Positions 16,957 through 64,000 of a DNA stretch of 64,000 bases are shown piece by piece (position 1 is the first letter of the stretch; every line of letters begins with the position of its first letter). Below the pieces are notes generated by a model. The model searched no databases. It was not told where the DNA came from and worked only from the letters and a program-made list of their open reading frames with translations. This DNA comes from Bryobacterales bacterium (GTDB lineage Bacteria; Acidobacteriota; Terriglobia; Bryobacterales; UBA6623), in the NCBI GenBank assembly GCA_022823865.1, contig JAJEHF010000215.1, forward strand, positions 2,924-66,923, read 5' to 3'. A program made the translations under genes and the position numbers.

Positions 16957-16957
16957 C

Positions 16958-17509: not shown

Positions 17510-17585
17510 GACCGTGCATTGCCTCCCAGTCGAGATCAGGTGACGACGAAGAGGAGATCTCTCGCTTTCAGCGCAGTTTTCGGCG

Positions 17586-17733: not shown

Positions 17734-19680
17734 ATGCGTTCGACTTGTGGCTTCTTGGTCTTCGTGCTGCTCGGGCAACTCTCGGCAACGGAGCTCGAAC
17801 GTGTTCGCTACAACGACCCGAGCCTCGAGGTGGATCTCGGAGTCGGACTGTGGGCCTGGCCGCTCCCTCTGGACTACGACCAGGACGGCGACCTAGACCT
17901 AGTCGTCTCGAGCGGCGGCTTGCCCTATGAGGGGACGTACTTCTTCGAGAATCCAGCCCCGCCGGGAAGCAATCCAGCGATGCCGATATTTCTGCCGGGC
18001 GTGCGCATCGGCGAATACCGTACCAATGCGCAGGTCTCCCACAACTCCGGCCATCCCGCTCTGATCACCACTCCGGGCGAAATGCACGCGACTTTCCACG
18101 AAGACGCCTACTCCAAACCCGTAGGACTGGATGTCCACACGGAGCGAGTCTACGCTTCCAGCGGCAGGCTGCGGGCGAAGCAGTGGAAGCTGGCCGACTG
18201 GGAGGGAGACGGGGACCTCGACCTCATCATTGGAGTGGGCGACTGGGGCGACTACGGCTGGGACGACGCGTTCGACCGCTCCGGCACGTGGACCAACGGC
18301 CCGCTGCACGGCTACGTCTACCTCGCCCTGCGCGAAGCGGACGGCACGTTCAGCGATCCTCGCCGGCTCACAGCCGCAGGGCTCGACGTCGATGTATTCG
18401 GCATGCCGAGCCCCAACCTGGCGGACTTCGACTCCGACGGCGACCTCGACTTGCTCTGCGGGGAATTCCTGGACGGATTTACCTACTTCGAAAACGTCGG
18501 CACGCGGGAACAGCCGCGGTTGGCCAAGGGCCGCCGCCTGCGCAGCGGAGACGAACCGCTCGCGATGGACCTGCAGATGATCACGCCGACCTCGGTGGAC
18601 TGGGATCGTGACGGCGATGTCGACTTGATCGTGGGGGACGAGGATGGCCGGGTCGCATTTGTCGAGCACACCGGCCGGCTCGAGGCGGGCATGCCGGTGT
18701 TCGCCCAGCCGCGGTATTTTCGCCAACGCGCCGAGTTCGTCAAGTTCGGCGCGCTGGTCACGCCGCAAGGGGTGGATATCGATTCCGATGGTGACGAGGA
18801 CATCGTCGCTGGCAACACCGCAGGCTATATCGGCTGGATTGAGAACTTGGGGGGCTACCCGCCGCGCTTCGCAGAACCGGCACTGCTACGGGCCGCCGGA
18901 ATGACCATTCGCATTCAAGCCGGACCGAACGGGTCCATCCAAGGCCCCTGCGAGGCAAAGTGGGGCTACACGACGATCGGTGTCGCCGACTGGGACGGAG
19001 ACGGGCTGTTGGACATTGTGGCGAACTCGATTTGGGGCCGCGTCGTCTGGTACCGCAACGTCGGCAGCCCGCACAGCCCTCGCTTTGAAGGCGGGCGCCC
19101 CGTGCGAGTGGACTGGCAGGCCACGCCGCCCAAGCCAGCTTGGAACTGGTGGAATCCGGGCGAGCGCGAGCTCGTCAGCCAGTGGCGCACGCGGCCCGTT
19201 CCGGTCGACTGGAACGCGGATGGACTGATGGATCTCGTGATGCTCGATCACGAGGGCTATCTGGCATGGTTTCGCCGCGTCCTCCATGACGGCCACGCCG
19301 TACTGCTGGCCGGCCAGCGGATCTTCGAATCCCAGCCGGCGTCCGACTACGACCGGCAGCACCGGGCCGTGAACAACCAGCCGGGCCCCCTCAGGTTGAA
19401 CTCCGACTGGGCCGGCAAGAGCGGACGCCGCAAGATCGACGTGGTGGACTGGGACGAAGACGGCAAGCTGGACATCATCGTGAACAGCACGAGCGCGAGT
19501 TGGATGCGTAACTTGGAAACCGACTATGGCAAGACCCGCTTAGTCGACATGGGACCGCTCTCCGAGACCAAGCTGGCCGGGCACACGTCGAGCCCGACCA
19601 CCGTCGACTGGAACGGCGACGGTAGGAGGGAACTCTTAGTTGGAGCCGAGGACGGCTTTCTCTACTGGGCCAAGCCGTAA
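17734..19680 (+). CDS. Secreted FG-GAP/VCBS repeat protein
   Basis: Signal peptide MRSTCGFLVFVLLGQLSA and repeated DxDGDGDLDL(I/V)VG Ca-binding-like motifs throughout. Confidence 0.8.
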   Translation: MRSTCGFLVFVLLGQLSATELERVRYNDPSLEVDLGVGLWAWPLPLDYDQDGDLDLVVSSGGLPYEGTYFFENPAPPGSNPAMPIFLPGVRIGEYRTNAQVSHNSGHPALITTPGEMHATFHEDAYSKPVGLDVHTERVYASSGRLRAKQWKLADWEGDGDLDLIIGVGDWGDYGWDDAFDRSGTWTNGPLHGYVYLALREADGTFSDPRRLTAAGLDVDVFGMPSPNLADFDSDGDLDLLCGEFLDGFTYFENVGTREQPRLAKGRRLRSGDEPLAMDLQMITPTSVDWDRDGDVDLIVGDEDGRVAFVEHTGRLEAGMPVFAQPRYFRQRAEFVKFGALVTPQGVDIDSDGDEDIVAGNTAGYIGWIENLGGYPPRFAEPALLRAAGMTIRIQAGPNGSIQGPCEAKWGYTTIGVADWDGDGLLDIVANSIWGRVVWYRNVGSPHSPRFEGGRPVRVDWQATPPKPAWNWWNPGERELVSQWRTRPVPVDWNADGLMDLVMLDHEGYLAWFRRVLHDGHAVLLAGQRIFESQPASDYDRQHRAVNNQPGPLRLNSDWAGKSGRRKIDVVDWDEDGKLDIIVNSTSASWMRNLETDYGKTRLVDMGPLSETKLAGHTSSPTTVDWNGDGRRELLVGAEDGFLYWAKP

Positions 19681-48854: not shown

Positions 48855-49369
48855 TGGTTCGATTCTACCGAGCGCCCAGGTCGTCCCCGCGTTGGCTAGG
48901 GAGAATTGAAGATTCTGAGCGTGTGCACGTGGCACCAAAGTCAGATCTGAGCGTCGCTTGTCTGTTCGTATCGAGACCCTGGCCAACCGTCCGAAGACCA
49001 AAACGAGGCCTCTGGGTGACGCCTGCAAAGGGAGCTTCAAGGCGTGATCGGTGCCATCGAGTATTGCCGGAAGATGTGACCTTCGTCCGTCGCAGGTGGG
49101 GCAGACCGTCGCTGCGGGGGCCAAGGAGGCCACCGCTCGTCGGCTAGAAGAGGCACCGCGTTCCTGCGCGACCTCAATGACACCAGCCGACGTCGGAGAG
49201 CATTTGCGCACAATGGAAAATAGGCATCGATACTGGGACCGGTCGAGGCCCGAGTCCCAGACGCTGTTCTTTCCGCGGCCACCGCGCGGCTCGCTGTGGT
49301 GACGCGGTGGACCGGTGGGTTTCGCGATATAGGCGTCAAGGCCGTGATTCCCGGGACCGCTGGGCTGCT

Positions 49370-52300
49370 ATGAGAATCATTTCCAACACCGGCACTGATC
49401 GCGTGGTCGATATCGTCCGGCCCAAGCTTCTGGCCGGTAATCGACTCGACCTCGCTTCCCAAACGCTATCGCTCTTTGCCTTTGGCGAGCTTGCCGGAAA
49501 TCTGGCTCGCTTAGCGGGCGCACGACTCATCCTGCCAACCGACGATACTGAGATCGATCTTCTGGGATCGAATGCGGACCGGTCCGCCCGCAATCGTCTG
49601 CAGGGGCGCTGGCTGGCCAGCCGTTGTGCGGCTTGGATCGAGAAAGCGGTCGACGTGCGCAAAGCAAACGGATCGATACCTCAGGGGGCCATCGTGCTGC
49701 GTGACGGCGATGGCCGTGCTGGGCAGGCCCTGCTCGGCTCGTTTTCATTCAGCACCGACGGGCTCGGCCTTGCACCGGGAAACTCGCTCAATCTGATTCA
49801 GGCTTCTGAGACGCCCGGAGAATGTGATCGGCTGGGCCTATGGTTCGATGCGCAATGGTCTGAGATGAGAGAAGAGACCGCCGCAAAGCAGGATCTCGTG
49901 GCGGCTCTGCGCTGTCTTGCTGCGCACCGCGCCCCATCCAGCATCTACGCGCTGATCCTGCACCACTTGTTCCGAACGGAGGGCGGCGAACTCGATGAAG
50001 AGCGAGTCGTAAAGTCGGCGACCGGGATTCGCGACACGGAAGTCTGGAAGAGACTGTTCAAGTTCCAGCGTGACGGGGTAGTTGGGGCCATCGACAAACT
50101 AGAGCAGTTCGGAGGCTGCATCATCGCTGACAGCGTAGGACTTGGCAAGACCTTCGAGGCGCTCGCGATCATCAAATACCACGAGCTCCGCAACGACCGC
50201 GTGCTTGTGCTCTGCCCGAAGCGGCTACGCGACAACTGGACGCTCTATCGCGCTAATGATCGACGCAACTTCCTGGCGGGCGACCGCTTCAATTACGACA
50301 TTCTGAATCACACCGACCTGTCTCGCGATGGCGGCTTGTCGGGCGATATTGACCTTTCCCATGTCAATTGGGGCAACTACGATCTCGTCGTAATTGATGA
50401 GTCGCACAACTTCCGCAATAAGCGTTCGCCACGTCAGGGCGGAGAGACACGGTACGACCGCCTCATGCACCGGATCGTCCGCGATGGCGTGAAGACTAGG
50501 GTCCTCATGCTCACCGCCACGCCCGTGAACAACCGTTTGGCCGACCTACGCAACCAGATCGCTTTCGCTACCGAGGGCAACGACACAGCGCTCGCGGATC
50601 ATGGTGTGTCCAGCATTGACGGCACGACGCAGCGTGCGCAGAAGCAGTTCAACCGCTGGCTCGAACTGGACGAAACCGAGCGTACGCCGACCCGGCTCGT
50701 CGACATGCTGGGGTTTGATTACTTCGCGTTGCTGGACCGTCTCACAATCGCCCGATCTCGCCGACATCTCAAGAAGTACTATGGCTACAGCGAGAGCGGG
50801 CGCTTCCCGGAGCGCCTCAAGCCGATCAACGTAAAACCGGATGTTGATCTCCGAGGAGAGTTCCCCTCGATCCGTGAGATCAATGCGGAGATCCGCCGCC
50901 TGAACCTCGCTGCCTACGCACCGCTCCGCTATATCCTGCCGCACAAGCGAGAGGCATACGACGAGAAATACAGCACCCGACTGCGCCGTGGAGGCGGTAC
51001 CTTCCGGCAACTGGACCGCGAGGAGAGCCTCGTCCAACTTCTCCGCGTGAACGCGCTCAAGCGAATGGAGAGTTCAGTCGCTTCGTTTACCTTGACGGTG
51101 CAGCGCCAGCTTGCCGATGTCGAAGCACTCTTGGCGCGTATCGAGGACCAAGCCGAAGAACTCGAGGAACTCGACATCGCGGACATAGATGTCGAGGACC
51201 CTGAGTTTGAGAGCCTCCTTGTAGGTCGTAAGGTCAAGGTTCTGCTTCAGGACGTTGATCTAGTCCGATGGCGGCAAGACTTGGTCGAGGACCGCAACCG
51301 GCTGGAGACGCTTCGTGCTGTGGCCGCACAAGTGACCTCCGACCGCGATGCCAAGCTCATTGAACTACGCGCAACAATCGAGCGAAAATGCCGCGACCCG
51401 ATCAACATCGGCAATCGCAAAGTCATTGTGTTCACTGCATTTGCCGACACCGCCCGTTATCTCTACGACGCGCTGGCACCCTGGGCACATGACCACTTGG
51501 GGGTTCAAGCCGCACTGGTTACCGGCGCGGGCCAAAATCAGGCAACCTTGTCTGGTCTTCGGCGTGATCTCGCATCCATCCTGACCGCCTTCGCGCCACG
51601 GACCAAGGAACGTCCGGATGACCTGGCGGCCGAAGGCGAGATTGATCTCTTGATCGCAACCGACTGCATCTCCGAAGGGCAGAACCTCCAAGACTGCGAC
51701 TGGCTCATCAACTACGATATCCACTGGAACCCGGTACGCATTATTCAGCGATTCGGCCGTATCGACCGCATTGGGTCACCCAACGATCACATTCAGCTCG
51801 TCAACTTCTGGCCCAACATGGAGCTTGAAGAATATCTCCGCTTGGAACAGCGCGTGAGTGGCCGCATGGTGCTTCTCGATATTTCGGCGACCGGCGAGGA
51901 GAACCTGATCGAGCAGCAGGCAGGCGACCCAATGAACGATCTGGTCTACCGACGCAAGCAACTCCTGAAGCTCCAAGATGCGGTGATAGATCTGGAGGAC
52001 TTGTCGTCGGGGGTCTCCATCGCCGATTTAACGCTGACCGATTTCCGGATCGATCTGGCGCACTATCGCAGGACCGATCCCGACGCATTGGACTCGGCTC
52101 CTCACGGTATGCATGCGGTCACCGTCACAGCTGATGAGGATATCCCGCCAGGAGCAATATTCTGCCTACGCGCAGAAGGAAGCGCAGCAGAGCATCACTT
52201 CCAGTCGAATTACCCTCTAGCGCCGCACTATCTGGTTCATGTCGGCCAGGACGGATCCGTGCTCTTGCCGTTCACTAGGGCCAAGGCGGTTCTCGACCGC

Positions 52301-52567
52301 CTGAAGGGGCTATGTGTGGGCAAGGACATGCCCGATCCGAGTGCCTGCGCTCGATTCGATGCCGCCACCCAGCAAGGCAAGGATATGCGGGCCGCGCAGC
52401 GGTCGCTGGCCGCCGCGGTTACCTCTATTGTTGGAACGGGCGAGGAACGCGCGATCGCCAGCCTGTTCTCTCCGGGAGGGACGCACGCGATCGCCGGCGA
52501 GTTCGCTGGAATGGACGATTTCGAGGTGGTGGCGTTTCTCATCGTGCTACCGGAGGACTTAGCTTGA
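49370..52567 (+). CDS. SNF2-family helicase with an extra ~180-aa N-terminal domain (PLD-like?)
   Basis: Start at MRIISNTG (49370). SNF2 motifs ADSVGLGKT, VVIDESHNFRNK and QRFGRIDRIGS. First gene of the defence operon. Confidence 0.85.
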   Translation: MRIISNTGTDRVVDIVRPKLLAGNRLDLASQTLSLFAFGELAGNLARLAGARLILPTDDTEIDLLGSNADRSARNRLQGRWLASRCAAWIEKAVDVRKANGSIPQGAIVLRDGDGRAGQALLGSFSFSTDGLGLAPGNSLNLIQASETPGECDRLGLWFDAQWSEMREETAAKQDLVAALRCLAAHRAPSSIYALILHHLFRTEGGELDEERVVKSATGIRDTEVWKRLFKFQRDGVVGAIDKLEQFGGCIIADSVGLGKTFEALAIIKYHELRNDRVLVLCPKRLRDNWTLYRANDRRNFLAGDRFNYDILNHTDLSRDGGLSGDIDLSHVNWGNYDLVVIDESHNFRNKRSPRQGGETRYDRLMHRIVRDGVKTRVLMLTATPVNNRLADLRNQIAFATEGNDTALADHGVSSIDGTTQRAQKQFNRWLELDETERTPTRLVDMLGFDYFALLDRLTIARSRRHLKKYYGYSESGRFPERLKPINVKPDVDLRGEFPSIREINAEIRRLNLAAYAPLRYILPHKREAYDEKYSTRLRRGGGTFRQLDREESLVQLLRVNALKRMESSVASFTLTVQRQLADVEALLARIEDQAEELEELDIADIDVEDPEFESLLVGRKVKVLLQDVDLVRWRQDLVEDRNRLETLRAVAAQVTSDRDAKLIELRATIERKCRDPINIGNRKVIVFTAFADTARYLYDALAPWAHDHLGVQAALVTGAGQNQATLSGLRRDLASILTAFAPRTKERPDDLAAEGEIDLLIATDCISEGQNLQDCDWLINYDIHWNPVRIIQRFGRIDRIGSPNDHIQLVNFWPNMELEEYLRLEQRVSGRMVLLDISATGEENLIEQQAGDPMNDLVYRRKQLLKLQDAVIDLEDLSSGVSIADLTLTDFRIDLAHYRRTDPDALDSAPHGMHAVTVTADEDIPPGAIFCLRAEGSAAEHHFQSNYPLAPHYLVHVGQDGSVLLPFTRAKAVLDRLKGLCVGKDMPDPSACARFDAATQQGKDMRAAQRSLAAAVTSIVGTGEERAIASLFSPGGTHAIAGEFAGMDDFEVVAFLIVLPEDLA

Positions 52568-53322
52568 CATCGTTCGATCCCTTCGTGGCGCTCGCGATCC
52601 CCCCTGACGCGCTCGTCGACCGCCGCGTGCCCAAGACGCTGCTGATCGAAAATGGCGCGTTCGCTGCGGGAGACCGGCGGCACATCCAAGAGGGGATCGA
52701 GGAATTGAGGTGGCTTGCGGCACTCAAGCCGACGACGATCAGCATCACCGAATATCGTGATGCCGAGCGGGAGTATCTTGAGATTGCCGTTCTGAAGCTC
52801 AATCTACGTCCAGCCGCACGAGGTGATCGCCTCGTCGAACTGGTTCACCGCGCCGTCCCCTATCCGGTGTTGCTGATCGCTTGGCGGGACGGGACGCCCG
52901 AGATCTCGCTCGCCCACAAGCGTCGGTCTCTGGGTGAAGCGGACAAGACAGTGATCGATAGCGAAATCTTTGTGGCACGTGCCTGCGGCGACCAGGCAAA
53001 CGCGCTGGTCATGTCGTTCCGGGATGCTCTCTCCCTAGCACGACAGCCCCGGCACACACTCCACGCCTTGTATCAGGGCTGGATCGATACTGTCCAAGCG
53101 TTCCGGGCGGCAACGATCACCGGCGCATTTCGCCTTCCCGCCACGACCCCAGCGGCGGCCGACCGGGAAGCCGCTCTCCGGGAATACCGCGATCTCAATG
53201 CTAGGATCGCCAATATACGTTCCGCGGCCAGCAAGGAGAAACAGATGTCCCGCCGGGCCGACTTGAACATCGAACTTGCGCGCCTGCGCGCACAGCGCGA
53301 TTTTGCTCGTGCCAGACTGTGA
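52564..53322 (+). CDS. DUF4391-like protein
   Basis: The TTG start overlaps the SNF2 stop (TTGA at 52564-52567). The layout (...VPYPVLLIAW...ISLAHKR... and C-terminal KEKQMSRRADLNIELARLR) matches my memory of DUF4391 proteins that sit between SNF2 and methylase genes. Confidence 0.6.
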   Translation: MTSFDPFVALAIPPDALVDRRVPKTLLIENGAFAAGDRRHIQEGIEELRWLAALKPTTISITEYRDAEREYLEIAVLKLNLRPAARGDRLVELVHRAVPYPVLLIAWRDGTPEISLAHKRRSLGEADKTVIDSEIFVARACGDQANALVMSFRDALSLARQPRHTLHALYQGWIDTVQAFRAATITGAFRLPATTPAAADREAALREYRDLNARIANIRSAASKEKQMSRRADLNIELARLRAQRDFARARL

Positions 53323-53336: not shown

Positions 53337-55325
53337 ATGGAGAAGATTATTGCCGGTGAACCGCAGGCCCGCTCGGCGGATATCATCGCCGACAATCTCG
53401 AAAGGCTGAAGGCCTTGTTTCCTGAGGCATTTACTGAAGGCAAGGTAGATTTTGCGGTGCTACGGCAGCCTCTCGGCGACAACGTGGACGAGAGTGATGA
53501 GAAATACGGCCTCAACTGGTACGGGAAACGCCGTGCACGGCAGCTAGCGCTCACACCCTCGCTTGGGACATTGCGCCCCTGTCCGGAGGAAAGCGTCGAT
53601 TGGGATATGACACAGAATCTGATGATCGAGGGCGATAATTTGGAGGTTCTAAAGCTCCTTCAGAAGAGTTATTCAGGTAAGGTCAAGCTTATCTATATCG
53701 ACCCTCCCTACAACACCGGTAAGGATTTCGTCTATTCGGACAATTATCGTGACAATCTACAAAACTACTTAGAGAGTACCGGGCAAACCGACAGCAGTAA
53801 CAGCGGTACGTTTTCATCAAACTCTGAGACCTCTGGAAGATTTCATACCTATTGGCTCAATATGATTCTACCGAGGCTGTACCTTGCTAGGTCACTGCTA
53901 CGGAAAGACGGAACAATCATGATCAGCATTGACGATACTGAAGTTGCTCATGTCCGACTAATTATGGACGACATTTTTGGCCCTGAGAACTTTATCGCCG
54001 AAATAGTCTGGGAGGGGGCCAACAAGAATGACGCACGGCAGATAGGCATTTGCCATGAGTACGTCATAGTATATGCCAAGAACCGTGAGAGCCTTCAGCG
54101 CGACTGGGGGTTGGACAAGGAGGGAGTGCAACCCGTACTCCAAGAAGTAAAACGCCTCAGAGGTTTACACGGCACCGATTACTGTGCGGCTTCTGAAGAT
54201 CTGGCAGGCTGGTTCCGAGCCAACAAAGCCAAACCAGCATTCGCAAATCGCCGGTTCAGAAATATTGATGCAAGGGGTGCGTACAAGGAGGATGATCCGA
54301 CCGCACCGGGGGGACGAAAATTCGAATTGCGGAATCCAAGGACTGGACAAGTTATTCCTCTCAGACAAAATCGAGGGTGGAGCTTTGACCAAGAGAGATT
54401 CGATCGGTTAGTGGGAGATGGAAGAATCACATTCGTGACGGAGACGAGCGTAATGGTTCGTCGTTATTTGCACGAGACGGACAAGCTAACTCCTCCAAGT
54501 GTCTTCTATCAGCCAGCACGTTCTGCGTCGGAACGACTCAATCGCATGATGGGTGCGCAGATTTTTGACTACCCGAAGGATGAAAGCATTTTAGGAAAAT
54601 TCATACAAATGGCGACTGACGATGACCCAAACGCTATTGTGATGGATTTTTTTGCTGGATCCGGTACGACAGGGCATGCTGCATTGGAACGAAATTCGTT
54701 AGATAATGGCAATCGTCGCTACGTCCTTGTTCAGCTTCCTGAACCACTTGACTCAAAGAAGAGCCACCAGAGAGCCGCTACCGATTACTGTGACGAACTC
54801 CGTAGACCACGCAGTATCGCCGAACTCACGAAGGAGCGTCTGCGCCGCGCGGCGCAGAAAATCAAGGATGAGAATCCCGAGTACACCGGCGATCTCGGCT
54901 TCCGCGTCTTCAAACTCGATACATCCAACATCCGTGCGTGGAATTCGAAGCCAGACAATCTGGAAGGCGCACTGCGTGCGGCTCTCAACCATGTCGAATC
55001 GGGCCGCACCGAAGAGGACATTCTCTATGAGCTGCTTCTAAAGCTCGGTCTCGATCTCTGCGTTCCCATCGAGACCCGGACGATTGCCGCTAGGGCCGTG
55101 CATGCGGTTGGTGCCGGAAGCCTGATTGCCTGCCTCGACGAGGCGATCTCCAGCGACGAGGTTGAGCCGCTAGGGGCTGGCATCGCTGACTGGCATGACA
55201 TCCTCGATCCCGCTGGCGAATCCACTGTTGTCTTTCGTGACAGCGCGTTCGGCGATGACGTCGCCAAAACGAACCTCACCGCAATCCTTGAGCAACGCGG
55301 TCTCGGAAATGTCCGAAGCTTGTGA
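53337..55325 (+). CDS. Site-specific DNA methyltransferase, beta-class N6-adenine (type III Mod-like)
   Basis: Motif IV IYIDPPYNTG precedes motif I DFFAGSGTTGHAA. AAGGAG RBS 9 nt upstream of the ATG. This is the AT-richest part of the operon by eye. Confidence 0.9.
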   Translation: MEKIIAGEPQARSADIIADNLERLKALFPEAFTEGKVDFAVLRQPLGDNVDESDEKYGLNWYGKRRARQLALTPSLGTLRPCPEESVDWDMTQNLMIEGDNLEVLKLLQKSYSGKVKLIYIDPPYNTGKDFVYSDNYRDNLQNYLESTGQTDSSNSGTFSSNSETSGRFHTYWLNMILPRLYLARSLLRKDGTIMISIDDTEVAHVRLIMDDIFGPENFIAEIVWEGANKNDARQIGICHEYVIVYAKNRESLQRDWGLDKEGVQPVLQEVKRLRGLHGTDYCAASEDLAGWFRANKAKPAFANRRFRNIDARGAYKEDDPTAPGGRKFELRNPRTGQVIPLRQNRGWSFDQERFDRLVGDGRITFVTETSVMVRRYLHETDKLTPPSVFYQPARSASERLNRMMGAQIFDYPKDESILGKFIQMATDDDPNAIVMDFFAGSGTTGHAALERNSLDNGNRRYVLVQLPEPLDSKKSHQRAATDYCDELRRPRSIAELTKERLRRAAQKIKDENPEYTGDLGFRVFKLDTSNIRAWNSKPDNLEGALRAALNHVESGRTEEDILYELLLKLGLDLCVPIETRTIAARAVHAVGAGSLIACLDEAISSDEVEPLGAGIADWHDILDPAGESTVVFRDSAFGDDVAKTNLTAILEQRGLGNVRSL

Positions 55326-55351: not shown

Positions 55352-56125
55352 ATGGCCCGCCGACACCACTACAGGAATCCTCCCATCGAGGAGGCACTCT
55401 GCGAGTTTCGCTTCGAGCCTGGGCGAGACTGGAATCTCACGATTCCAGGAAGGCTGCAAACGGTTCTTGGGGAGGCTTACTCCGGCAGGCCAAGAGAACA
55501 GAGGGCTATTGAAGTAGATCTAGGTCTGGGAAGTGCCCTGCCTTCCGGTTTGCAATTCCGGCAGGGGCTCGCCAAGGTTCAGTTGGTGACCGCAGATGGA
55601 AAGCGGTCAGTAGGCGTGGGGAAAGACTCGCTCAGTGTCCACATGTTGCGACCGTACCAGCGGCAAAGCGAGGAAAGCCAAGCTGGCTGGGACGAATTCA
55701 AGTTACGGATATCGGAAGCACTGGATGCCTACTGGAAGGTGGCTCGCCCCAAAGGTGTCAAGCGGGTCGGCGTCCGATACATCAATAAGCTCGTGGTCCC
55801 TAGTGGCAGCATCGAGCTTGAAGATTATCTTGCTTGTGGCCTTCCCCAAACTACAGCGCTGCCAGAGACCGCGAGCAGCTTCGTCAGTCGAGTGGAGTAC
55901 GCTTTCCCTGGTCCGGTGCGTCTGATCCTGACACTCGGCACTGTTCCGGCCTCACGGGAAGGCGTCCAAGAGTTGTTGGTGGATCTCGATGTCATCCGGG
56001 AGGATGCCGAGCCACTGGATCAACGTCAGGCAAGCAAGGTGGTTGAAGAGTTGCGGGCTAGGGAGCGCCAAGTGTTCGAATCTGTCATTACAGACAAGGC
56101 GAGGAGGCTGTTCGATGCGGATTGA
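55352..56125 (+). CDS. TIGR04255-like uncharacterised protein
   Basis: The N-terminus MARRHHYRNPPIEEALCEFRF matches the Y.n.PI.EA..E.RF start that I recall for the TIGR04255 family. ~257 aa. An alternative GTG at 55322 would overlap the methylase stop. Confidence 0.55.
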   Translation: MARRHHYRNPPIEEALCEFRFEPGRDWNLTIPGRLQTVLGEAYSGRPREQRAIEVDLGLGSALPSGLQFRQGLAKVQLVTADGKRSVGVGKDSLSVHMLRPYQRQSEESQAGWDEFKLRISEALDAYWKVARPKGVKRVGVRYINKLVVPSGSIELEDYLACGLPQTTALPETASSFVSRVEYAFPGPVRLILTLGTVPASREGVQELLVDLDVIREDAEPLDQRQASKVVEELRARERQVFESVITDKARRLFDAD

Positions 56126-56840
56126 ATCAAAGTCCATTGCTTCTGCCAGAACTTGGACGGCCGACCAGGCAACCTCGGCAACTCCGGATCGTTCACACCG
56201 TTCATCGAAGGATTCTCGGATCGTGGCACTAGGAAACGACTCGCTCGCGACGCTTCCCGATGCAGCGGTGTTGAGAATGGCTACGCTCGAAGCCAGACTC
56301 GCATCGTCCCTTCGATCGGATGCAATGAGCCATGCGGCGTGGTCGCCGCCGACCAGTGATTCCGGTGCTCTGCCGGAGATCCTGAGCTACCTGGCGAGCA
56401 CTGACGAACAACGTTGTGTGGAGCCTGTCGCTCATGCACAACTTGAGCGGCAATTGCAAAATGCCTTCGAACGCCAACCGTTTGAAGACGGAATCGATCA
56501 TGCCGCGGACGACATAATTCAAGAGGCATTGCAAACACCCTACCAGCACGTCGCGCTGGAGTGGCTACGGTCGTTCGCCCTAGACACAGAGAATCCTGTG
56601 TTTGCTGCCTCCACGCTGAGGTGCCTTGGGCGCGTAGAGAACTTGGGCACCCCTATATGGAGAACCGAGCTCGTGCGGGAGGGCCTGATGATGGAGGACC
56701 TTGAGATGCGGGATGCTGCGATTCAGACGGCGGAGAATTGGGGAGACAGGGAGATGGTCGAGGTTCTCCAAGCGCATACCGAATCGAACAGTTTGCTCCG
56801 CAGATATGTTGAAGATGTGATCAGCGATCTGAGCGAGTGA
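56115..56840 (+). CDS. Hypothetical protein with C-terminal HEAT/ARM-like repeats
   Basis: ATG at 56115 with a GAGGAGG RBS 7 nt upstream; overlaps the previous gene by 11 nt. The C-terminus ...MEDLEMRDAAIQTAENWGDREMVEVLQAH... is HEAT-like. Confidence 0.5.
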   Translation: MRIESKSIASARTWTADQATSATPDRSHRSSKDSRIVALGNDSLATLPDAAVLRMATLEARLASSLRSDAMSHAAWSPPTSDSGALPEILSYLASTDEQRCVEPVAHAQLERQLQNAFERQPFEDGIDHAADDIIQEALQTPYQHVALEWLRSFALDTENPVFAASTLRCLGRVENLGTPIWRTELVREGLMMEDLEMRDAAIQTAENWGDREMVEVLQAHTESNSLLRRYVEDVISDLSE

Positions 56841-56843
56841 TCG

Positions 56844-57356
56844 ATGTCGATGTTCGTGGCACGCAAGATTTCGAGCTCAAAATGGGAGAAGCATCCTGAG
56901 TTCGCCGAGGGCGAAATCCAGGCAGATGCGGTGACCGCCGACCTACGGACCAATAAAAATGTGCTTTCGTTCTGGCGTTGTCAAAGCGGCGAGATTACGG
57001 ATGTCGAAAACGTGGCTCTGGCAATCGCAGCGGCAGCGGACCGCATCGAGAAAGTCGATGTGGTGTGGCTGCCCACCGACCAGCTTCTCGAAGATCGCCA
57101 GACATTTATGGACAGCCCCGGCCGGACCCCGGTCGCCGATCTCGTTGATAGTCACGTGGACCTCAGCAGACTTGATCTCGTGCGGCTTGGGCGGCTCGCG
57201 AACCGGGTAGTGGAAGCTATCGGAGCGGGCCGTACACAACGAGTTCCCAGAGCGCGGGTAAAGAGCCTCCTAGTGAATGCCGTACTAACGAATCGAATCG
57301 AGCCCGAGCGGCTGTCGGAGAAGATTCGTAGGGCTCTGAATGCCGAGGGAGGCTAA
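56844..57356 (+). CDS. Hypothetical 170-aa protein
   Basis: Begins 3 nt after the previous stop. The N-terminus ...ARKISSSKWE....EIQADAVTADLRTNKNVLSFW... recalls an unnamed family I have seen in defence islands, but I cannot assign it to a family. Confidence 0.45.
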   Translation: MSMFVARKISSSKWEKHPEFAEGEIQADAVTADLRTNKNVLSFWRCQSGEITDVENVALAIAAAADRIEKVDVVWLPTDQLLEDRQTFMDSPGRTPVADLVDSHVDLSRLDLVRLGRLANRVVEAIGAGRTQRVPRARVKSLLVNAVLTNRIEPERLSEKIRRALNAEGG

Positions 57357-57359: not shown

Positions 57360-57614
57360 GTGCATAGGCGTCAGACTATTCTCTGCTCAAGCAACCAAGA
57401 TCAATCGTTCGTTGCCGAGGTCCCCGAGACACGTAGGGGCATGAAGTTGGGCGCTGATCAGGGAACTGTCCACCGGCGCGTCATTGACGCGATGCAGTTC
57501 TGGATCGAACAGGCACAGGAACGGGGACGGCCCCTCCTGCACCCTAACGGCCAACTCCTGATGCTCGCCGACCGCGTGTGGCAACAACCACAGCAAGCAC
57601 CTCTCCAGCCATGA
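57360..57614 (+). CDS. HicB-like (antitoxin-fold) small protein, diverged
   Basis: GTG start with a GAGGGAGG RBS 7 nt upstream. ...SFVAEVPETRRGMKLGADQGTVHRRVIDAMQFWIEQAQERGRPLLHP parallels the HicB pattern ...fvAevPeLpGc.a.G.T.eEA....eA...wie.a.e.G.piP.P. Its stop overlaps the Res start (ATGATGA). Confidence 0.45.
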   Translation: MHRRQTILCSSNQDQSFVAEVPETRRGMKLGADQGTVHRRVIDAMQFWIEQAQERGRPLLHPNGQLLMLADRVWQQPQQAPLQP

Positions 57615-60337
57615 TGAAGCTCCGTTTCGAGCCCGACCTCGATTTTCAGTTGCAAGCGGTGGATGCCGTATGCGGTCTCTTCCGCGGTCAGGAGATATGC
57701 CGGACCGAGTTCACGGTCACGCGGGATCCACTGGACCCACAAGAGCGACTGGCGTTTTCTCAGAACGATCTCGGAGTCGGCAATCGACTGACCCTGCTCG
57801 ACGACGAGATTCACGAGAACCTGAAAGACATCCAGCTCCGCAACGGTCTGCCGCCGTCCGAGTCGTTGCACTCGGGGGACTTCACTGTGGAGATGGAGAC
57901 CGGGACCGGCAAGACCTACGTATATCTGCGCACGGTCTTCGAGTTAAACAAGCGCTACGGCTTTACCAAGTTCGTCATCGTCGTGCCGTCGGTCGCGATC
58001 AAGGAAGGCGTCTACAAGTCGCTCCAGATGACAGACGACCACTTCCGTGCGCTCTATTCGGGCACGCCATTCGATTACTTCCTCTACGACTCGACAAAGC
58101 TCGGCCAAGTCCGCAATTTCGCCACTAGCCCGCAAATCCAGATCATGGTGGTAACAGTCGGAGCCATCAACAAGAGGGATGTCAACAATCTCTACAAAGA
58201 CAGCGAGAAAACAGGCGGCGAAAGGCCGATCGATCTCATCAAAGCCACCAGACCTATTCTGATCGTGGACGAGCCCCAAAGCGTGGACGGTGGCCTCGCA
58301 GGGCGAGGCAAGCAAGCCCTCGACGCGATGAATCCGCTCTGTACGCTACGGTACTCGGCGACACATGTGGATAAACACCACATGGTCTACCGGCTCGATG
58401 CCGTTGACGCGTATGAACGCAAGCTGGTCAAGCAGATCGAGGTGGCGTCCGCCAACATCGAAGACGCCCACAACAGGCCCTATGTCCGGCTGATCTCAAC
58501 AAACAACAAACGCGGCGTCGTCAGCGCCAAGGTCGAAGTCGATGTCGAAGTCGCCGGACATGTACGGCGCAGCGAGAGGGCGGTCCACGATGGCGACGAT
58601 CTCGAACAGGAGACGGGGCGGGTAGTCTATCGCGATTGCCGCGTCGGCGAGATAAGGGTTGGGAAAGGAAACGCACTCATTGAACTGCGGGTGCCGGGCG
58701 GCGAGCACTTTCTCCGGGAGGGCGAAGCCTACGGCGATGTGGATGCATCAGCCGTCCAGCGGCAGATGATACGACGGACCATTCGCGAGCATCTCGATAA
58801 AGAGAAACGCTTGCGTCCACAGGGGATCAAGGTCCTGAGCCTCTTCTTCATCGATTCTGTGGAGCGCTACCGTCGCTATGACGATGCGGGCCAACCGTGC
58901 AAAGGTGACTATGCCCGAATGTTCGAGCAGGAGTACCAGCGCCTTGCTCGCCATCCCGACTATGTTTCGCTGTTCGAAGAAGTGGATCTCACAGCGGATG
59001 TCGTAGATGTCCACGATGGCTATTTCTCGATCGACAGGAAGGGGGGCTGGACGGATACCGCCGAAAACAACCAAGTCAATCGCGACAATGCTGAGCGTGC
59101 CTACAACCTCATCATGAAGGAAAAAGAGAAGCTACTGAGCCTCAACGAGCCTCTCAAGTTCATCTTCTCCCATTCAGCATTGCGCGAGGGTTGGGACAAC
59201 CCCAATGTCTTCCAAATCTGCGCTCTGCGGGATATCCACACCGAGCGTGAGCGGCGGCAGACCATCGGACGCGGCCTGCGTCTTTGCGTCAATCAAGGCG
59301 GTGAGCGCTTGCGTGGCTTCGAAGTGAACACGCTGACGGTAGTTGCAAGGGAGAGCTACGAGGAGTTCGCAGAGAACCTCCAACGGGAAATCGAGGAAGA
59401 TACTGGAATCCGCTTCGGGGTCATCGAGCCGCACCAGTTCGCACAGATTCCAGTTATCGACGATGATGGAGCAAAGTCCGTTCTTGGGTTCGACAAGTCG
59501 CAGGTCCTGTTCGACCATCTACAGGCTGAAGGCTACCTCGACGCAAAGGGGCGAATACAGGACTCCCTACGCAATGCGATCAAGGCCGATAGTTTCTCGA
59601 TTCCTCAAGGATTTGTCGAGCAGCGGACTGACATCGGTTCCGTTTTGCGCAAATTCGCTGGTCGATTTGAAATCAAGAATGCAGACGAGCGCCAAGCCGT
59701 CCGCCCGCGCCAAGCTGTGCTGGACGCCGCAGAGTTCAAGGCATTGTGGGACCGCATCAAGCACAAGACTACCTATCGCGTGGCCTTCGACAACAAGGCC
59801 CTTCTAGAAAAATGCGCCGCTGCGTTACGCAAAGCACCACCAATCCCAAGAACGCGGCTGCAATGGCGTAAGGCCGACGTGTCCATCGGTCAGGCGGGAG
59901 TACAGGCTACCGAAATCGCCGGGGCGTCGACGGTCGTTTTAGATGAGGTCGACATCGAGCTGCCAGACTTGCTCACGGAGCTTCAGGACCGGACGCAGCT
60001 CACTCGGCGCAGCATCCACAATATTCTTGTTGAAAGTGGGCGCCTCGACGATTTCAAGCGGAATCCGCAGCAGTTCATCGAAATTTCCGAGCAGGCCGTC
60101 AATAGTTGCAAGCGACAGGCACTCGTGGACGGCATCAAGTACCAGCGAATCGGGGATGAGTCCTACTACGCCCAAGAACTCTTCGAGCAAGAAGAGCTCA
60201 CCGGCTACCTCAAGAACATGCTCGATGCCCAGAAATCGGTCTATGAGAAAGTCATTGTAAGCGGACGTTATATCTCGGTCCGCCGGGACGTAATACCCGG
60301 CCCAGGACTTAAAGTAATACCTCAGCCCAGTTTCTGA
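57611..60337 (+). pseudogene. Type III restriction enzyme Res-subunit helicase, apparently truncated before the C-terminal endonuclease domain
   Basis: Helicase motifs METGTGKTY, ILIVDEPQS and HSALREGWDNPNVF. After ...KSVYEKVI the expected DS.vE...PD-(D/E)xK segment is absent. The last ~26 codons (VSGRYISVRRDVIPGPGLKVIPQPSF) are unrelated, and the DNA there is AT-richer. Confidence 0.65.
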
Positions 60338-60404
60338 CGACCACAACATGTAGTGGTGTAGGCCGCACCTAAAAACGGTCCTGCGCTGGCGCCAACGAGG
60401 TCGA

Positions 60405-60836
60405 CTAGAAGCGGAGGACGCCTCGCGCAACTCGGTCAGATTCGGCTGTCCGGAGGTCAGGCAGGCGTCGTCGCAGAGCCTTCAGCGAGAGCACTGGGTA
60501 GCCGCGCCTGGCCGCTTCGGATTGGTAGCGGCGAAGGGCGGCAGCGACGCTCGAGCGCGGAATTCGCCGGTATTCCGCCGCGAGCAGTTGCAAGGCCTCG
60601 GCGGGCAGCTTGACCCTGGGCCGGCCGCCGCATGGGGCGCCCCGATTACGGTCTAGCGCTCGCGAGTTGCCGAGATTGTTTTCGCGCCATCGCCTCCAGA
60701 GGTACAGGCTGGCCCGGGAGACGTTGCGCTTGCTCGCGACGATGACGGCCGCCGCGCTCCAGCTCATGCCGCTAGCGGCAAGGCGGTCGCAATCGCTCAA
60801 GCACTTAGCCCTGAAGAATCTATCGGGTTGCGGCAT
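60405..60836 (-). CDS. HTH DNA-binding protein; possibly the N-terminal fragment of a Mu/Tn-type transposase or a phage regulator
   Basis: HTH-like ...SGMSWSAAAVIVASKRNVSRASLYLWRRW..., then ...GRPRVKLPAEALQLLAAEY...GYPVLSLKALRRRL..., which resembles Mu-type DNA-binding subdomains. No catalytic domain follows. The start (60836 vs 60896) is uncertain. Confidence 0.4.
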   Translation of the reverse strand: MPQPDRFFRAKCLSDCDRLAASGMSWSAAAVIVASKRNVSRASLYLWRRWRENNLGNSRALDRNRGAPCGGRPRVKLPAEALQLLAAEYRRIPRSSVAAALRRYQSEAARRGYPVLSLKALRRRLPDLRTAESDRVARGVLRF

Positions 60837-60892
60837 GGAGATGATTATACGGCCCCTTGAAGGCCTCTTCAAGCATCGCTGAAGGGCATTTC

Positions 60893-61870
60893 TCACGCCG
60901 TGGGAACCTCCGCCGTGACGCTGGTCGAATAGCCGCCGCCGCTGATCCGGTGCACCGCCCGAACGCAGATCCAGCGACGGTCGAGGCCGTCCCTGAAACC
61001 CTTCAGGCGCAGCTCCGCCTCGGCCGCGACCTCGGGCTTTCCGGGCTCCAGCTCGATCGCCAGCCGGCCGGTGCCGCGCAGCAGCTCTCGCAGTTTCGCG
61101 CGAGCGGCGTCGCGCGCCTCTCCGGAGCTCGGATACAGCCGCCGCAGCGCGTAGACCGGCTCCCCCGATCCCGCCTCCTCGGTGACGCTGCCGGCCGCCT
61201 GAGCGTCGCGCCAGCGCGCCGTCACGGCGCTATAGTCGCCCCTGTCGGCCAGCGAGGCTCGCCAGCGCGAGGCGTCGGCCGGCCCGATCTCGACGGCCGG
61301 CATGCGCCTGCCGGTGGCGCTGGAGGCCTCCCCGCGCGGCACCAGCAGCAGCTTCCCCTCGGCCGGCTTCGCGATCGCGTCGTAGTCGCGGGCGACCCTG
61401 GTCAGCAGGTGCAGGTCGGACTCCTCGGTCTGGTCCAGGTGAGGGATCCGCACCGCTCGCAGGGACTCTCCGACGCGGCCTTCGAGGCCGTGCTCGGAGG
61501 CGATCCCGGCGACCAGCTCGCCGAGCGAAACATCGCTCCAGGAGCGCGACTTGCGAGACTTCAGCGAGCTGCGCATGTCGGCTCCCCGGGCGCGGATCAC
61601 CAGCGTGTCCGGCGGCCCCTCAAGGGCCGTCTCGTCGACCGTGAACTCTCCGGCGGGAGTCATCTTACCGTCCAGCCAGCCCAGCGAGATCGACAGCCGG
61701 GAGCCCTTGCGCGGCAGCGCCACCGCCCCGTCGCGATCGTCGATCCGGATCTCGGCCGAGTCGGACTGCTCGCCCGCCTCGTCGGTCACCGACAGCTGCA
61801 GCAGGCGGTCGCGGATCGCCTCGGTGGCGTCCTGGGACTCGTCGACCTCGATGCGAAAATCGGGCGTCAC
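60893..61870 (-). CDS. Phage late control protein D (P2 gpD-like tail/baseplate hub protein)
   Basis: 325 aa with the gpD-like pattern ...PDFRIEVD...DITDRLLSLSVTDEAG..SD.AEI.IDDRDG... and ...DQTEESDLHLLTRVARDYDA.AKPAEGKLL.VPRG. Confidence 0.85.
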   Translation of the reverse strand: MTPDFRIEVDESQDATEAIRDRLLQLSVTDEAGEQSDSAEIRIDDRDGAVALPRKGSRLSISLGWLDGKMTPAGEFTVDETALEGPPDTLVIRARGADMRSSLKSRKSRSWSDVSLGELVAGIASEHGLEGRVGESLRAVRIPHLDQTEESDLHLLTRVARDYDAIAKPAEGKLLLVPRGEASSATGRRMPAVEIGPADASRWRASLADRGDYSAVTARWRDAQAAGSVTEEAGSGEPVYALRRLYPSSGEARDAARAKLRELLRGTGRLAIELEPGKPEVAAEAELRLKGFRDGLDRRWICVRAVHRISGGGYSTSVTAEVPTA

Positions 61871-61874
61871 GCGA

Positions 61875-62084
61875 TCACTCCCAGAGCCTCACGGCCTCGC
61901 TCCGCCTGCTCTCGGCGGGCAGCTCCGGCAGCTCGATGAGCACTCCGGCCGGCAGCAGCGGGCCCCTGTCCGCCAGCCCGGGATTGGCCTCCAGCACGAC
62001 CTCGGCCGCGCCGGGCCGCGGGCCGTAATGCCGGCGGCTGATGGCGTCGACCATGTCGCCCTCGCTGGTCAGGTACGCGGCCAT
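61875..62084 (-). CDS. Phage tail protein X (P2 gpX-like)
   Basis: 69 aa. ...GDMVDAISRRHYG......VLEANPGLA......LPAGVLIELPE is the gpX/LysM-like pattern. Confidence 0.8.
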   Translation of the reverse strand: MAAYLTSEGDMVDAISRRHYGPRPGAAEVVLEANPGLADRGPLLPAGVLIELPELPAESRRSEAVRLWE

Positions 62085-62087
62085 TGC

Positions 62088-62492
62088 CTAGCCCTCCCCG
62101 TCCTCTCCGTAGAACGCGAGCGAGATCTGGAATTCGACCTTTCGGGGCGCCCCGCCGGCCAGGTGCGCGCTGCCGGTATCGCGGATCCGCGTGATCACCC
62201 ACAGGCCGAGCACCTTCCCGTCGCCGCCCACCAGGCGCAGCGGCTCGCCCTTGGCGGCCTCCGCGCGCATGGCGTCCAGCTGGCCCAGCCCCCCGCGCCA
62301 GGCCGGGTAGATCGTCCCGCGCAAATCGATCGTGTCGTCCCCCGGCCCCAGCCACTGCCGCGCCGGCGTCCGGCCGACGCGGTCCTGCCGGTGCCAGCGG
62401 TATTCCTGCGCGCGAGAAAGCTCGCCGTAGGCCGCCGTCGAGACCGAGAAGGCGTATGCTCCGAGCTTCAGCAGCTGCGCGTCATCCGGCAT
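62088..62492 (-). CDS. Phage tail protein U (P2 gpU-like)
   Basis: 134 aa. ...LGAYAFSVSTAAYGELSRAQEYRWHRQDRVGR.PA.QWLGPGDDTIDL.G.IYP... is the typical gpU pattern. Confidence 0.85.
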   Translation of the reverse strand: MPDDAQLLKLGAYAFSVSTAAYGELSRAQEYRWHRQDRVGRTPARQWLGPGDDTIDLRGTIYPAWRGGLGQLDAMRAEAAKGEPLRLVGGDGKVLGLWVITRIRDTGSAHLAGGAPRKVEFQISLAFYGEDGEG

Positions 62493-64000
62493 CGTAGAGT
62501 CCCTCCAGGCGGCCCTGCCGCTGGGCGTCCTCGAGCTTCTCGATCACGCGGTCCGCCAGCTCCTCGGCGCTCTCCCCGGGCAGCTGCTGGATCGAGATAC
62601 GGACATTCCACGTGACGGAAGGAGCGGGCGCAGGCTCGGGACGGCGAGCCTCGGAAGGCTCGGCGCGGATCTCCGCTGCCGGCAGCGGAGAGTCCGGTGT
62701 CGTGTCCGTATCGCCCGCGGGGATTCCCGCGGCCGCCAGCGGGACCGCCAGCGCCGTCGCGGCAGCGGCCGTCGCCAGGCGGGGCGCGCGCCTGCCGCCC
62801 AGCTGTCGCGCGGCCGGCTTGCCGGACTCCTCGATCCCGGCCTGCTCGATCTTCCCGGCCAGAGCCGGATCGTGGAACACTTGGCTCGCGAAGGAGCCGA
62901 TCTTGTGCCCGGCGAGACCGCCCGCCACGCTGCCGAGGAGCCCGCCGATGACTGTCCCGACGACCGGCACGACCGACCCCAGCGCCGCTCCCAGCGCCGC
63001 GCCGGCCATGGCGCCGCCGATGCCTCCGGCCTCTTTCGTCACTCCGGCCGCCTTCTCCCCGGCGCTGAGCTTCTTGTCGAGCAGCGTGCCGCCTATCGCG
63101 GCCGCCCCGATCAGGGCGCCCGCGATGCCGGCCTTGCCCTTGAGCATGCCGAGCGCCTGCCGGCCGCGGCCGCGGCCGAATTCGAAGACCTTGCCGGCAA
63201 GGCCCCGGAAGCCGCCCTTGCGCAGGCCTCTGAGCTTGTCTCCCAAGCCCCGGAAGCCCCGTCCGGCCTTGCCCGGGGGAGCGCCCCCGGCCGGGCCGCC
63301 GATGGCATCCGCGAGCACCGCTGCCTTGCTCCTGCGGGCCTGTTTCCCGAGGAACGCGATCGCCAGGCCCAGGTTGGTGACGGCGGTAACCACCGGCGCG
63401 GCGATCAAGGCGACGGCGCCGGCGGCTCCCAGGGCGCCGACGAGGATTCGCGTCCAGACGGGCGCCCCCTCCGCGAAGCCGGAGATCTTCTCCGCCAGCC
63501 ACTCGACCATCGGGGCGGCCGCCTCCAGCGCGGGGATCAGAGCCTCCCCGATCTTCAGGCCGACCTCGTTCCAGCGCGCCTCCAGCTTGTCCATCCTGGC
63601 GTCGAAGTTGTCCTCGTCGGCCGCGTCGACCGCGTCGCGCACCGCTTGCGCGCCTCCCTCGCCGGCAGCGCGAATGTCGGCCTCGGCGGCTCGCAGCGCG
63701 TCCGCCTGCCCCCACAGCGAATCGAAGAAGCGCACGGCCTCCTCGGACCCGAAGGCCTGCCTGAGCGCCTCGCCGCGCTCGCTCGCGCCCATGCCGCGGA
63801 ACTCGCGCTGCACCTGCTCGAGCAGGTCCGCCAGCGGCAGGACGTTCCCGCGCGCGTCCAGCGTCCGGACGCCCAGGCCCTGCTCGCGAAAGTACTCGTC
63901 GGCCTTGGCCGCGTTGGCCGCCAGGGCCTTCAGGGCCGTGCCGGCCTCGCCGGCCTCCATCTTCGACTGCAGCATGCCCAGCGCCGCGAACTGCGACTCC
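62482..64000 (-). CDS. Phage tail tape-measure protein (gpT-like), N-terminus outside the window
   Basis: The ORF is open to the window edge. Ala/Gly-rich with a TMP core (...EAGTALKALAANAAKA...) and hydrophobic Gly-rich segments. Overlaps the gpU start by 11 nt. Confidence 0.8.
   Translation of the reverse strand, partial: ESQFAALGMLQSKMEAGEAGTALKALAANAAKADEYFREQGLGVRTLDARGNVLPLADLLEQVQREFRGMGASERGEALRQAFGSEEAVRFFDSLWGQADALRAAEADIRAAGEGGAQAVRDAVDAADEDNFDARMDKLEARWNEVGLKIGEALIPALEAAAPMVEWLAEKISGFAEGAPVWTRILVGALGAAGAVALIAAPVVTAVTNLGLAIAFLGKQARRSKAAVLADAIGGPAGGAPPGKAGRGFRGLGDKLRGLRKGGFRGLAGKVFEFGRGRGRQALGMLKGKAGIAGALIGAAAIGGTLLDKKLSAGEKAAGVTKEAGGIGGAMAGAALGAALGSVVPVVGTVIGGLLGSVAGGLAGHKIGSFASQVFHDPALAGKIEQAGIEESGKPAARQLGGRRAPRLATAAAATALAVPLAAAGIPAGDTDTTPDSPLPAAEIRAEPSEARRPEPAPAPSVTWNVRISIQQLPGESAEELADRVIEKLEDAQRQGRLEGLYDAG

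Follow-up and report, generated by a model that had tools for sequence, protein, structure and literature searches.

Three-gene toxin-antitoxin operons are exemplified by TAC (HigB-HigA-SecB-like) and by PaaR-PaaA-ParE, and in TAC an antitoxin that loses its chaperone-addiction segment no longer needs the chaperone. Immune functions tied to restriction are also known: prrC resides within the Type IC locus EcoprrI, where it is activated on inhibition of restriction and has been proposed to act as back-up immunity (PMC12707154), and Ronin (HsdMS plus RonA) and the Type III system EcoR22I, which comes with a DrmD-like SNF2 helicase, lead to cell death in response to anti-restriction proteins (bioRxiv 10.1101/2023.04.06.535777). 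We analysed a stretch of 64,000 nucleotides (nt) of contig JAJEHF010000215.1 from a Bryobacterales bacterium, called the window hereafter, in which three genes named here A, B and C (55352-57356) lie between mod and res in a Type III restriction-modification operon. On balance, we think it probable that A-B-C is autonomous mobile cargo at the Type III mod/res junction, forming a toxin-antitoxin-like or abortive-infection-like unit.

The three co-directional open reading frames (ORFs) between Mod and Res, which an earlier note made from the letters of the window had placed and described, were confirmed. Gene A (55352-56125, plus strand) encodes a protein of 257 residues, the head of the module; its likeness to TIGR04255 was upheld by the NCBIfam hidden Markov model (105.9 bits for a cut-off of 30, E 2.9e-30, profile positions 2-251 of 252), and more than 462 homologues of about 256 residues each were found. 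Literature searches on this family, also under CHP04255 and IPR026349, found nothing. Gene B (56115-56840, plus strand, 241 residues) has its start codon, an ATG at 56115, downstream of the ribosome-binding site GAGGAGG and shares 11 nt with A, and gene C (56844-57356, plus strand, 170 residues) starts 3 nt past the B stop. This is the tight coupling looked for in a toxin-antitoxin operon, and the spacing of B and C suggests translational coupling. The earlier claim of good ribosome-binding sites or overlaps for all three genes needs a correction: the site of A is weak.

B is made of a variable N-terminal region of about 100 residues and a conserved, strongly acidic, weakly HEAT-like C-terminal domain (residues ~101-241) with a pI of 4.4 and a net charge of -17 (family median pI 4.6), and its alignment displays the motifs EDGxxHPAE, FAASVLRCLGR, RDAAVQAAESW and WLRxYIxDVIxDL. 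The HEAT-like C-terminus proposed earlier survives as a weak likeness: scanning B against Pfam, NCBIfam, PHROGs and PADLOC yielded only HEAT_2, at 17.9 bits (E 0.004) and under the gathering score of 27.7 bits, the best PDB profile match was a designed alpha-Rep (E 0.09), and one B homologue has a precomputed PF13646 match.

C, the candidate effector, belongs to a large family. A full HMMER scan gave 2664 clusters at 50% identity (E<=1e-3), nearly all of the best 150 being free-standing proteins some 165-175 residues long; the word-indexed homologues numbered 126. The protein matches the unnamed phrog_10743 of PHROGs (E 1e-22) and nothing in Pfam, NCBIfam, PADLOC or PDB. Its N-terminal signature, pointed out in the earlier note, is real and family-wide, with R7, K13, W14, D28, R35, S42 and W44 invariant in 61 homologues. 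Ten residues (R7, K13, W14, D28, R/K35, S42, W44, T95, H104 and D106), eight of them polar, are kept in copies of 25-36% identity, and this conserved constellation would be in keeping with an active site or with an important binding surface. The statement that no catalytic motif could be seen has to be qualified for C, where the invariant polar constellation could be catalytic.

Foldseek searches of C against PDB and BFVD and of A against PDB gave no match at E<=0.001, and TM-scores did not exceed about 0.46. The AlphaFold2 (AF2) model of C, with a predicted local distance difference test score (pLDDT) of 93.9, alternates beta-strands with helices, and its best Foldseek matches were at E 0.5 and a TM-score of ~0.2 in PDB and at E 0.06 and a TM-score of up to 0.46 in BFVD. 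ART/RES, GNAT, TIR, PIN and similar folds had been considered for C from motifs and were rejected, no fold match being found. The AF2 model of A (pLDDT 84.9) is alpha+beta with two beta-sheet/long-helix segments, and it has no significant match in PDB, either by fold (Foldseek of the model) or by sequence/profile; its non-significant fold neighbours in PDB are Bet v1/PYL, GyrI-like, Med18/20 and triphosphate-tunnel proteins. 

Through C we recovered 69 genome loci, whose phyla were read from the record titles. In all of them (69/69) the gene directly upstream of C is a B homologue, spaced by at most 20 nt; in 39/69 this B is itself directly preceded by a full A; and B and C are together in each of the 29 viral loci found through C. 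The co-occurrence of B and C is far beyond chance. The loci cover at least 15 phyla: Acidobacteriota, Latescibacterota, Binatia, Rhodothermales, Chloroflexota, Spirochaetota, Pseudomonadota, Verrucomicrobiota, Nitrospirota, Thermodesulfobacteriota, Cyanobacteria, Myxococcota, Planctomycetota, Bacillota and Eisenbacteria. The trio does travel together in other genomes, as the earlier note had envisaged, and neither of the two outcomes by which that note would have been contradicted, a lack of co-occurrence elsewhere or an assignment to housekeeping families, came true.

In the forms lacking A, B opens with the N-terminal peptide of A (YKNPPIE..., up to ~50 A residues) fused to the B C-terminal domain, with at least four breakpoints (L012/14/19, L038, L068 and L025). 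These forms are derived, having arisen by at least four independent deletions, and in them A has been lost along with the initial ~90 residues of B. All three genes are under purifying selection. The ratio of nonsynonymous to synonymous substitution rates (dN/dS) was 0.12-0.18 for A against its orthologues, 0.27-0.31 for B and 0.24-0.34 for C, the range across A, B and C in the window clade being 0.12-0.34; in the two-gene forms, values of 0.06-0.36 were obtained for the B C-terminal domain and C. Four copies (L075, L128, L115 and L116) have C disrupted and B intact, the viral contigs L115 and L116 having C cut to 54 residues. No promoter-like site was found in the region, terminator-like sites were at chance level, and an Rfam scan gave nothing above chance.

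The surroundings of the module are varied. Among the genome loci, a Type III Mod lies upstream in 7/68 and a Res downstream in 4/66; other flanks comprise a few OLD/AbiEii-like ATPases, methylases, a SNF2+Mrr protein, and housekeeping genes such as those for an ABC transporter, aconitase, chorismate synthase and UbiD. We also collected 80 metagenome loci (L117-L196) seeded on A at 30-79% identity, 45 of which have at least 1300 nt downstream. Mod/Res flanks are absent from ~54/69 genome loci and from 80/80 of these A-seeded loci. Remote copies, with C at 25-36% identity, lie at prophage ends in IMG/VR contigs, as in L089, where the order is integrase, gene 1, B-like and C-like. In Acinetobacter phage Ab105-1phi (L077, 2656-4594) a remote trio follows the tail-fibre gene, and the same arrangement occurs in many Acinetobacter prophages. 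Another remote trio (2753-4555) is the main cargo of the 7.5-kb MobQ plasmid pYWS30-1-6 of Acinetobacter (L078, NZ_CP114612.1), the second gene of which aligns with the B C-terminal domain in hhalign at 94% probability (E 1e-7). The first gene of the phage and plasmid versions encodes a different protein of ~230-248 residues. Given the varied flanks, the prophage ends and the small plasmid, the A-B-C module is autonomous and horizontally mobile.

The comparison with an operon free of the cassette shows how the three genes came to lie where they do. On the Paraburkholderia plasmid pOLGA2, in an operon of the order SNF2-DUF4391-Mod-Res, mod (9791-11740) and res (11756-14869) are 15 nt apart. Since mod abuts res there, A-B-C is an insertion at the mod/res junction and not a set of restriction subunits, which would be part of the canonical operon and obligate with Mod/Res; A, B and C are neither. 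In Type III systems specificity resides in Mod, and to our knowledge no separate specificity subunit is needed. The earlier proposal that the trio sits where specificity subunits would be expected is not supported on either ground.

The genome loci were scanned with nucleotide profiles made from the 3' end of mod and the 5' end of res, with support at the protein level too. The window and five further loci from several phyla (L008, L009, L020, L044 and L052) have the trio precisely at the mod/res junction. Stubs of the mod 3' end occur directly upstream of A in eight loci (L013, L018, L027, L033, L034, L043, L045 and L049) and stubs of the res 5' end directly past C in four (L018, L022, L045 and L076); L018 (8378-8443 and 10519-10634) and L045 (8408-8469 and 10514-10591) have both stubs, the restriction genes being absent. 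In L044 the order is Mod-D-[res5' stub][mod3' scar]-A-B-C-Res, with stub and scar upstream of A at 8423-8468, the operon intact and the mod-3' scar seen in the DNA alignment; gene D is discussed below. To judge from the alignments, this stub pattern looks like the signature expected of cassette exchange by recombination between related operons; it also looks like what the retention of a promoter in the mod 3' end would leave. In total, about 15/69 genome loci are inside Type III operons or have mod-3' or res-5' stubs, and no such stubs were found in the 80 A-seeded metagenome loci. The mod/res junction is therefore a recurrent landing site, and the association is not obligate.

The metagenome loci also show that A is not bound to B and C. 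Among the 45 with sufficient downstream sequence, B and C follow A in 18. The remaining 27 have another pair of small co-directional genes, X and Y, after A, and at least six types of such pairs occur. Pfam matches in these sister modules comprise PIN in five and HEPN in four, located in the third gene in each individually checked case, and single matches each to ParE, helix-turn-helix (HTH) and PilZ among the X/Y partners. PIN or HEPN matches were found in the third genes of L159 (module 2865-4462, third gene 4013-4462) and L131 (module 181-1821, third gene 1372-1821), and HEPN in that of L187 (module 5007-6654, third gene 6289-6654). In L187 a Mod-like gene and other genes precede A-X-HEPN-ResIII; in L136 an Eco57I/MmeI-like methylase lies directly upstream of the TIGR04255 module, and integrases accompany the modules of L159 and L171. 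TIGR04255 proteins thus head three-gene modules whose third position, where recognisable, holds a toxin-type RNase domain. A recognised toxin domain is found in the sister modules only, not in C. We know of no description of the PIN and HEPN sister modules.

Taken together, these data are in agreement with the following scheme. C, with its fold lacking a match and its invariant R/K/D/S/T/H/D constellation, would be the effector. It would be bound and kept inactive by the acidic HEAT-like C-terminal domain of B, serving as a neutraliser or adaptor, and A, acting through the variable N-terminal region of B, would be the sensing or regulatory input that releases C on a trigger. This trigger could be phage infection and, in the copies embedded in restriction operons, possibly restriction that fails or is inhibited. 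The B C-terminal domain and C are taken as the invariant core since B and C are always adjacent; positional analogy points to C as the likely effector, with B as its neutraliser or adaptor and A as sensor or regulator. These roles, like the toxicity, the trigger and the anti-phage effect, are what we infer from the data. The autonomy of the module, its horizontal spread, the purifying selection and the PIN/HEPN sister modules fit better with one of the options left by the earlier note, that of an independent small defence or abortive-infection module making use of the operon.

We also put forward, as a more speculative extension to which we give distinctly less credence, that TIGR04255 proteins head a superfamily, so far undescribed, of tripartite toxin or immune modules with interchangeable two-gene tails (PIN, HEPN, C and others). 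A-B-C would then be a new anti-phage system with a C of unseen fold and chemistry, the mod/res junction would be its preferred landing pad, with exchange via the stubs, and the embedded copies would provide a second line of defence when restriction fails.

Several observations weigh against the cargo reading. Neither A nor C has a recognisable toxin or enzyme fold, for C according to fold searches of PDB and BFVD and profile searches of PDB, and A, B and C have no match in PADLOC-DB v2.0.0 at E<=0.01. The HEAT_2 score of B is below threshold, as given above. X and Y resemble B and C at nothing better than E 0.76, which leaves the positional analogy as an analogy only, and the first gene of the phage and plasmid versions is not related to TIGR04255 by NCBIfam, hhalign or Pfam. 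In L070, B (9512-9981) has an in-frame stop between the residues matching positions 183 and 185 and C is intact with all its invariant residues; unless it reflects a sequencing error, such a stop would be unexpected in an essential antitoxin. Finally, many copies are stable at one housekeeping site in related Latescibacterota, between ABC-transporter and aldo-keto-reductase genes, a situation that is compatible with a non-defence cellular role too.

Different explanations could be issued for the same data. A restriction guard comparable to PrrC or Ronin, in which Mod/Res silences the trio and the trio fires when a phage anti-restriction protein disables restriction, is a rather unlikely candidate with several points in its favour: the window and five loci of several phyla have the trio within a restriction locus, ~10 more have stubs (mod-3' stubs in eight further loci, res-5' stubs in four), a HEPN-type TIGR04255 module lies between Mod-like and ResIII genes in L187, and precedents exist in PrrC/EcoprrI (PMC12707154) and in Ronin and EcoR22I (bioRxiv 10.1101/2023.04.06.535777). 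However, the ~54/69 genome and 80/80 metagenome copies standing without a Mod/Res flank are intact and under purifying selection, the phage and small-plasmid copies have no restriction genes at all, and A, B and C are intact in the window next to a Res deprived of its nuclease domain. With most copies lacking restriction neighbours, with that Res and with selection on stand-alone copies, a guard function could apply at most to the embedded copies and cannot be the general one. The same distribution bears on the idea that A, B and C are accessory or regulatory restriction subunits tuning the specificity, assembly or timing of Mod/Res or of the SNF2 helicase. The three genes are co-directional with the operon, lack a detected promoter-like site, with terminator-like sites at chance level, and lie between mod and res across several phyla, but the canonical operon exists entirely without them, Mod/Res do not adjoin most copies, B and C on phages and plasmids have another first gene as partner, and a separate specificity subunit is not required in Type III systems. 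This explanation is already largely refuted by the distribution of the genes and seems to us very improbable, and the suggestion of an adaptor or sensor for the flanking enzymes is not supported either, given the ~54/69 genome and 80/80 metagenome loci without such neighbours.

Two further explanations leave restriction aside. B and C, with or without A, may be a selfish toxin-antitoxin unit stabilising its carrier DNA (restriction islands, prophages or plasmids, for instance) and having no anti-phage role. Such pure addiction would account for the tight linkage and coupling-like spacing of B and C, the acidic middle protein, a B-C core that outlasts both the loss of A and the decay of surrounding restriction genes, the place of the trio as main cargo of a 7.5-kb mobilisable plasmid, and the copies with C disrupted and B intact (L075, L128, L115 and L116). 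Yet Pfam scans recognised no toxin, antitoxin or autoregulatory DNA-binding domain, and the presence of A as a conserved third partner speaks more for a regulated input than for simple addiction; we regard addiction alone as unlikely, its difference from the cargo reading being one of function that sequence does not separate. A cellular function outside conflict, for example that of a small-molecule-binding or stress-response trio that spreads easily, would be in agreement with the stable site between ABC-transporter and aldo-keto-reductase genes in several Latescibacterota genomes and with the weak, non-significant fold neighbours of A, among which are the ligand-binding Bet v1, PYL and GyrI-like proteins. 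It is hard to reconcile with the sporadic spread over at least 15 phyla, the carriage by prophages and a plasmid, the linkage to restriction operons, the PIN or HEPN domains of the sister modules and the modular exchange of partners, and we give it hardly any weight.

Having retained mobile cargo as the preferred reading of A-B-C, we turn to the operon that carries it. A single string of plus-strand genes at 49.3-60.3 kb comprises the SNF2/DrmD-like helicase, DUF4391, Mod, A, B, C, D and Res, and the gene boundaries of operon and cassette were reproduced by an independent gene call on the identical metagenome scaffold L082, from which the coordinates of the helicase and DUF4391 genes are taken. 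The helicase (49370-52567, plus strand), first gene of the host operon, matches the PADLOC model C3a139 'HKD+Snf2' (E 5.8e-111) and DrmD models. It is followed by the DUF4391 gene (52564-53322, plus strand; Pfam DUF4391, E 8.9e-62), on which a literature search found nothing relevant. The Mod methyltransferase gene (53337-55325, plus strand), directly upstream of the cassette, is identified as Type III by Pfam N6_N4_Mtase (E 2e-27) and PADLOC MTase_III (E 1e-208). Between orthologous operons (the window, L002 and L003), the dN of Mod is ~0.32-0.37 and its dS is saturated, the dN of Res being 0.04-0.07 and the cassette also being far less diverged, and the GC content of Mod, 0.50-0.54, is the lowest within the island. 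This divergence and low GC suggest that the specificity region of Mod was replaced.

Between C and res lies an additional gene missed in the earlier note, ORF D (57360-57614, plus strand), which is HicB-like and encodes 84 residues from a GTG. Its orthologues have 70 residues and PF15919 (HicB_lk_antitox); the window copy has no Pfam match and has lost the ancestral stop. The TGA of D and the ATG of res overlap as ATGA at 57611-57614, and in L044 D is located upstream of the cassette, not downstream. Because D is HicB-like in its orthologues, coupled by its stop to the res start and upstream in L044, it goes with res and not with the trio, and is part of a Mod-D-Res variant of the operon. The window copy, with a dN/dS of 0.55-0.68 vs 0.29 between orthologues, looks as if it were decaying; D could be a regulator or a relic antitoxin. 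No HicA came out of the Pfam matches or gene calls here, HicA not having been specifically searched. A toxin-antitoxin pair made of C and the HicB-like D was considered and rejected, D moving independently of the cassette and being coupled to res, as was a pair of C and a downstream HTH gene, since an HTH gene is next after C in only 2/66 loci and a HicB-like one in a few.

The Type III Res helicase-nuclease gene downstream of the cassette (57611-60337, plus strand) is truncated. Its product is 91% identical to the 1000-residue Res of L003 over residues 1-882 only, homology ending at nt 60256. The helicase part is retained (ResIII; PADLOC REase_III, 1193 bits), the last 118 residues are gone, and the nuclease domain RE_endonuc (PF19778), present in orthologous Res, is absent from the window Res, which therefore does not have the helicase plus C-terminal PD-(D/E)xK nuclease make-up of a Type III Res. 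The domain is missing because a prophage was inserted in res, and restriction is probably dead in the window. This end of a Mu-like or P2-like prophage (60257-64000, minus strand), inserted at codon 882, is recognised by the homology break at 60256/60257, by the GC content, which passes from ~0.57-0.58 to 0.73 on the prophage side, and by its phage genes; the sequence beyond the break begins TGTAAGCGG. Its minus-strand genes include Phage_GPD, tail_X and GpU (tail proteins D, X and U) and a tape measure gene, and an ORF at 60405-60896 matches the Mu-transposase HTH and phrog_310. The prophage end is outside the A-B-C module, yet it inactivates the restriction gene.

Other operons of this type are damaged as well. 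The sister operon L001 is full of insertion sequence elements (4086-6361 and 11153-18187), with a Mu-transposase_C/IstB pair between DUF4391 and Mod and rve/AAA_22 and DruA/Tnp genes between D and Res, and the Res of L002 is in two pieces of 899 and 94 residues. SNF2-DUF4391-Mod-Res operons decay often, while A-B-C stays intact. On the left of the island, a large minus-strand gene (45882-49211, 990-1109 residues according to the start chosen) has a DUF7133 match, a faint HEAT_2 and, from reading of the sequence and not from a scan, a putative cytochrome-c-type CxxCH motif at its end. This immediate neighbour probably marks the chromosomal boundary at ~49.2 kb; in L002 and L003 the island is at different chromosomal sites.

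If the cargo reading is correct, a large cross-phylum family of three-gene conflict modules is missing from PADLOC, the sole defence catalogue checked. Its candidate effector C, with a confident model and no fold match in PDB or BFVD, may hold new biochemistry, and the curated family TIGR04255 would gain a functional handle. Type III operons would carry or receive defence cargo in the way Type I loci do with prrC, which would help to explain the assembly and the movement of layered immunity. For annotation, genes found between mod and res should not be presumed to be restriction subunits.

Compared with the described systems, A-B-C resembles PrrC/EcoprrI (and also RloC and the 'rlo' genes) in being unrelated, putative effector cargo lodged in a restriction-modification operon and travelling along with it. 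PrrC, however, is one protein, whose ATPase and nuclease domains are known and which depends on its restriction partner to be masked, whereas A-B-C consists of three proteins with no known domains beyond TIGR04255, has a Type III instead of a Type I host, and is found in most copies without any restriction operon. EcoR22I, by its published description, is like the host operon of the window in combining a DrmD-related SNF2 helicase with Type III mod and res, but its death function is in Mod/Res itself and no inserted cassette has been described; in Ronin, RonA is a membrane protein of 61 residues, unlike A, B or C. The sister TIGR04255 modules share with A-B-C the family of the first gene and the layout of three same-strand, tightly spaced genes, their second and third genes being unrelated in sequence to B and C. 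From the tripartite toxin-antitoxin systems A-B-C differs by its gene order and sizes and by having nothing like SecB, HigA/B, ParE or an HTH regulator. It is nevertheless like them in its three-gene operon, in spacing and overlaps that suggest coupling, and in a two-gene core with a dispensable third partner, and the joint loss of A and the N-terminal segment of B, with the B C-terminal domain and C remaining, resembles what is seen in TAC. The components of the module, its landing site in Type III operons and the modular family of TIGR04255 proteins appear undescribed; its kind is a familiar one, a mobile conflict module carried as cargo by a restriction operon and laid out as a tripartite toxin-antitoxin system.

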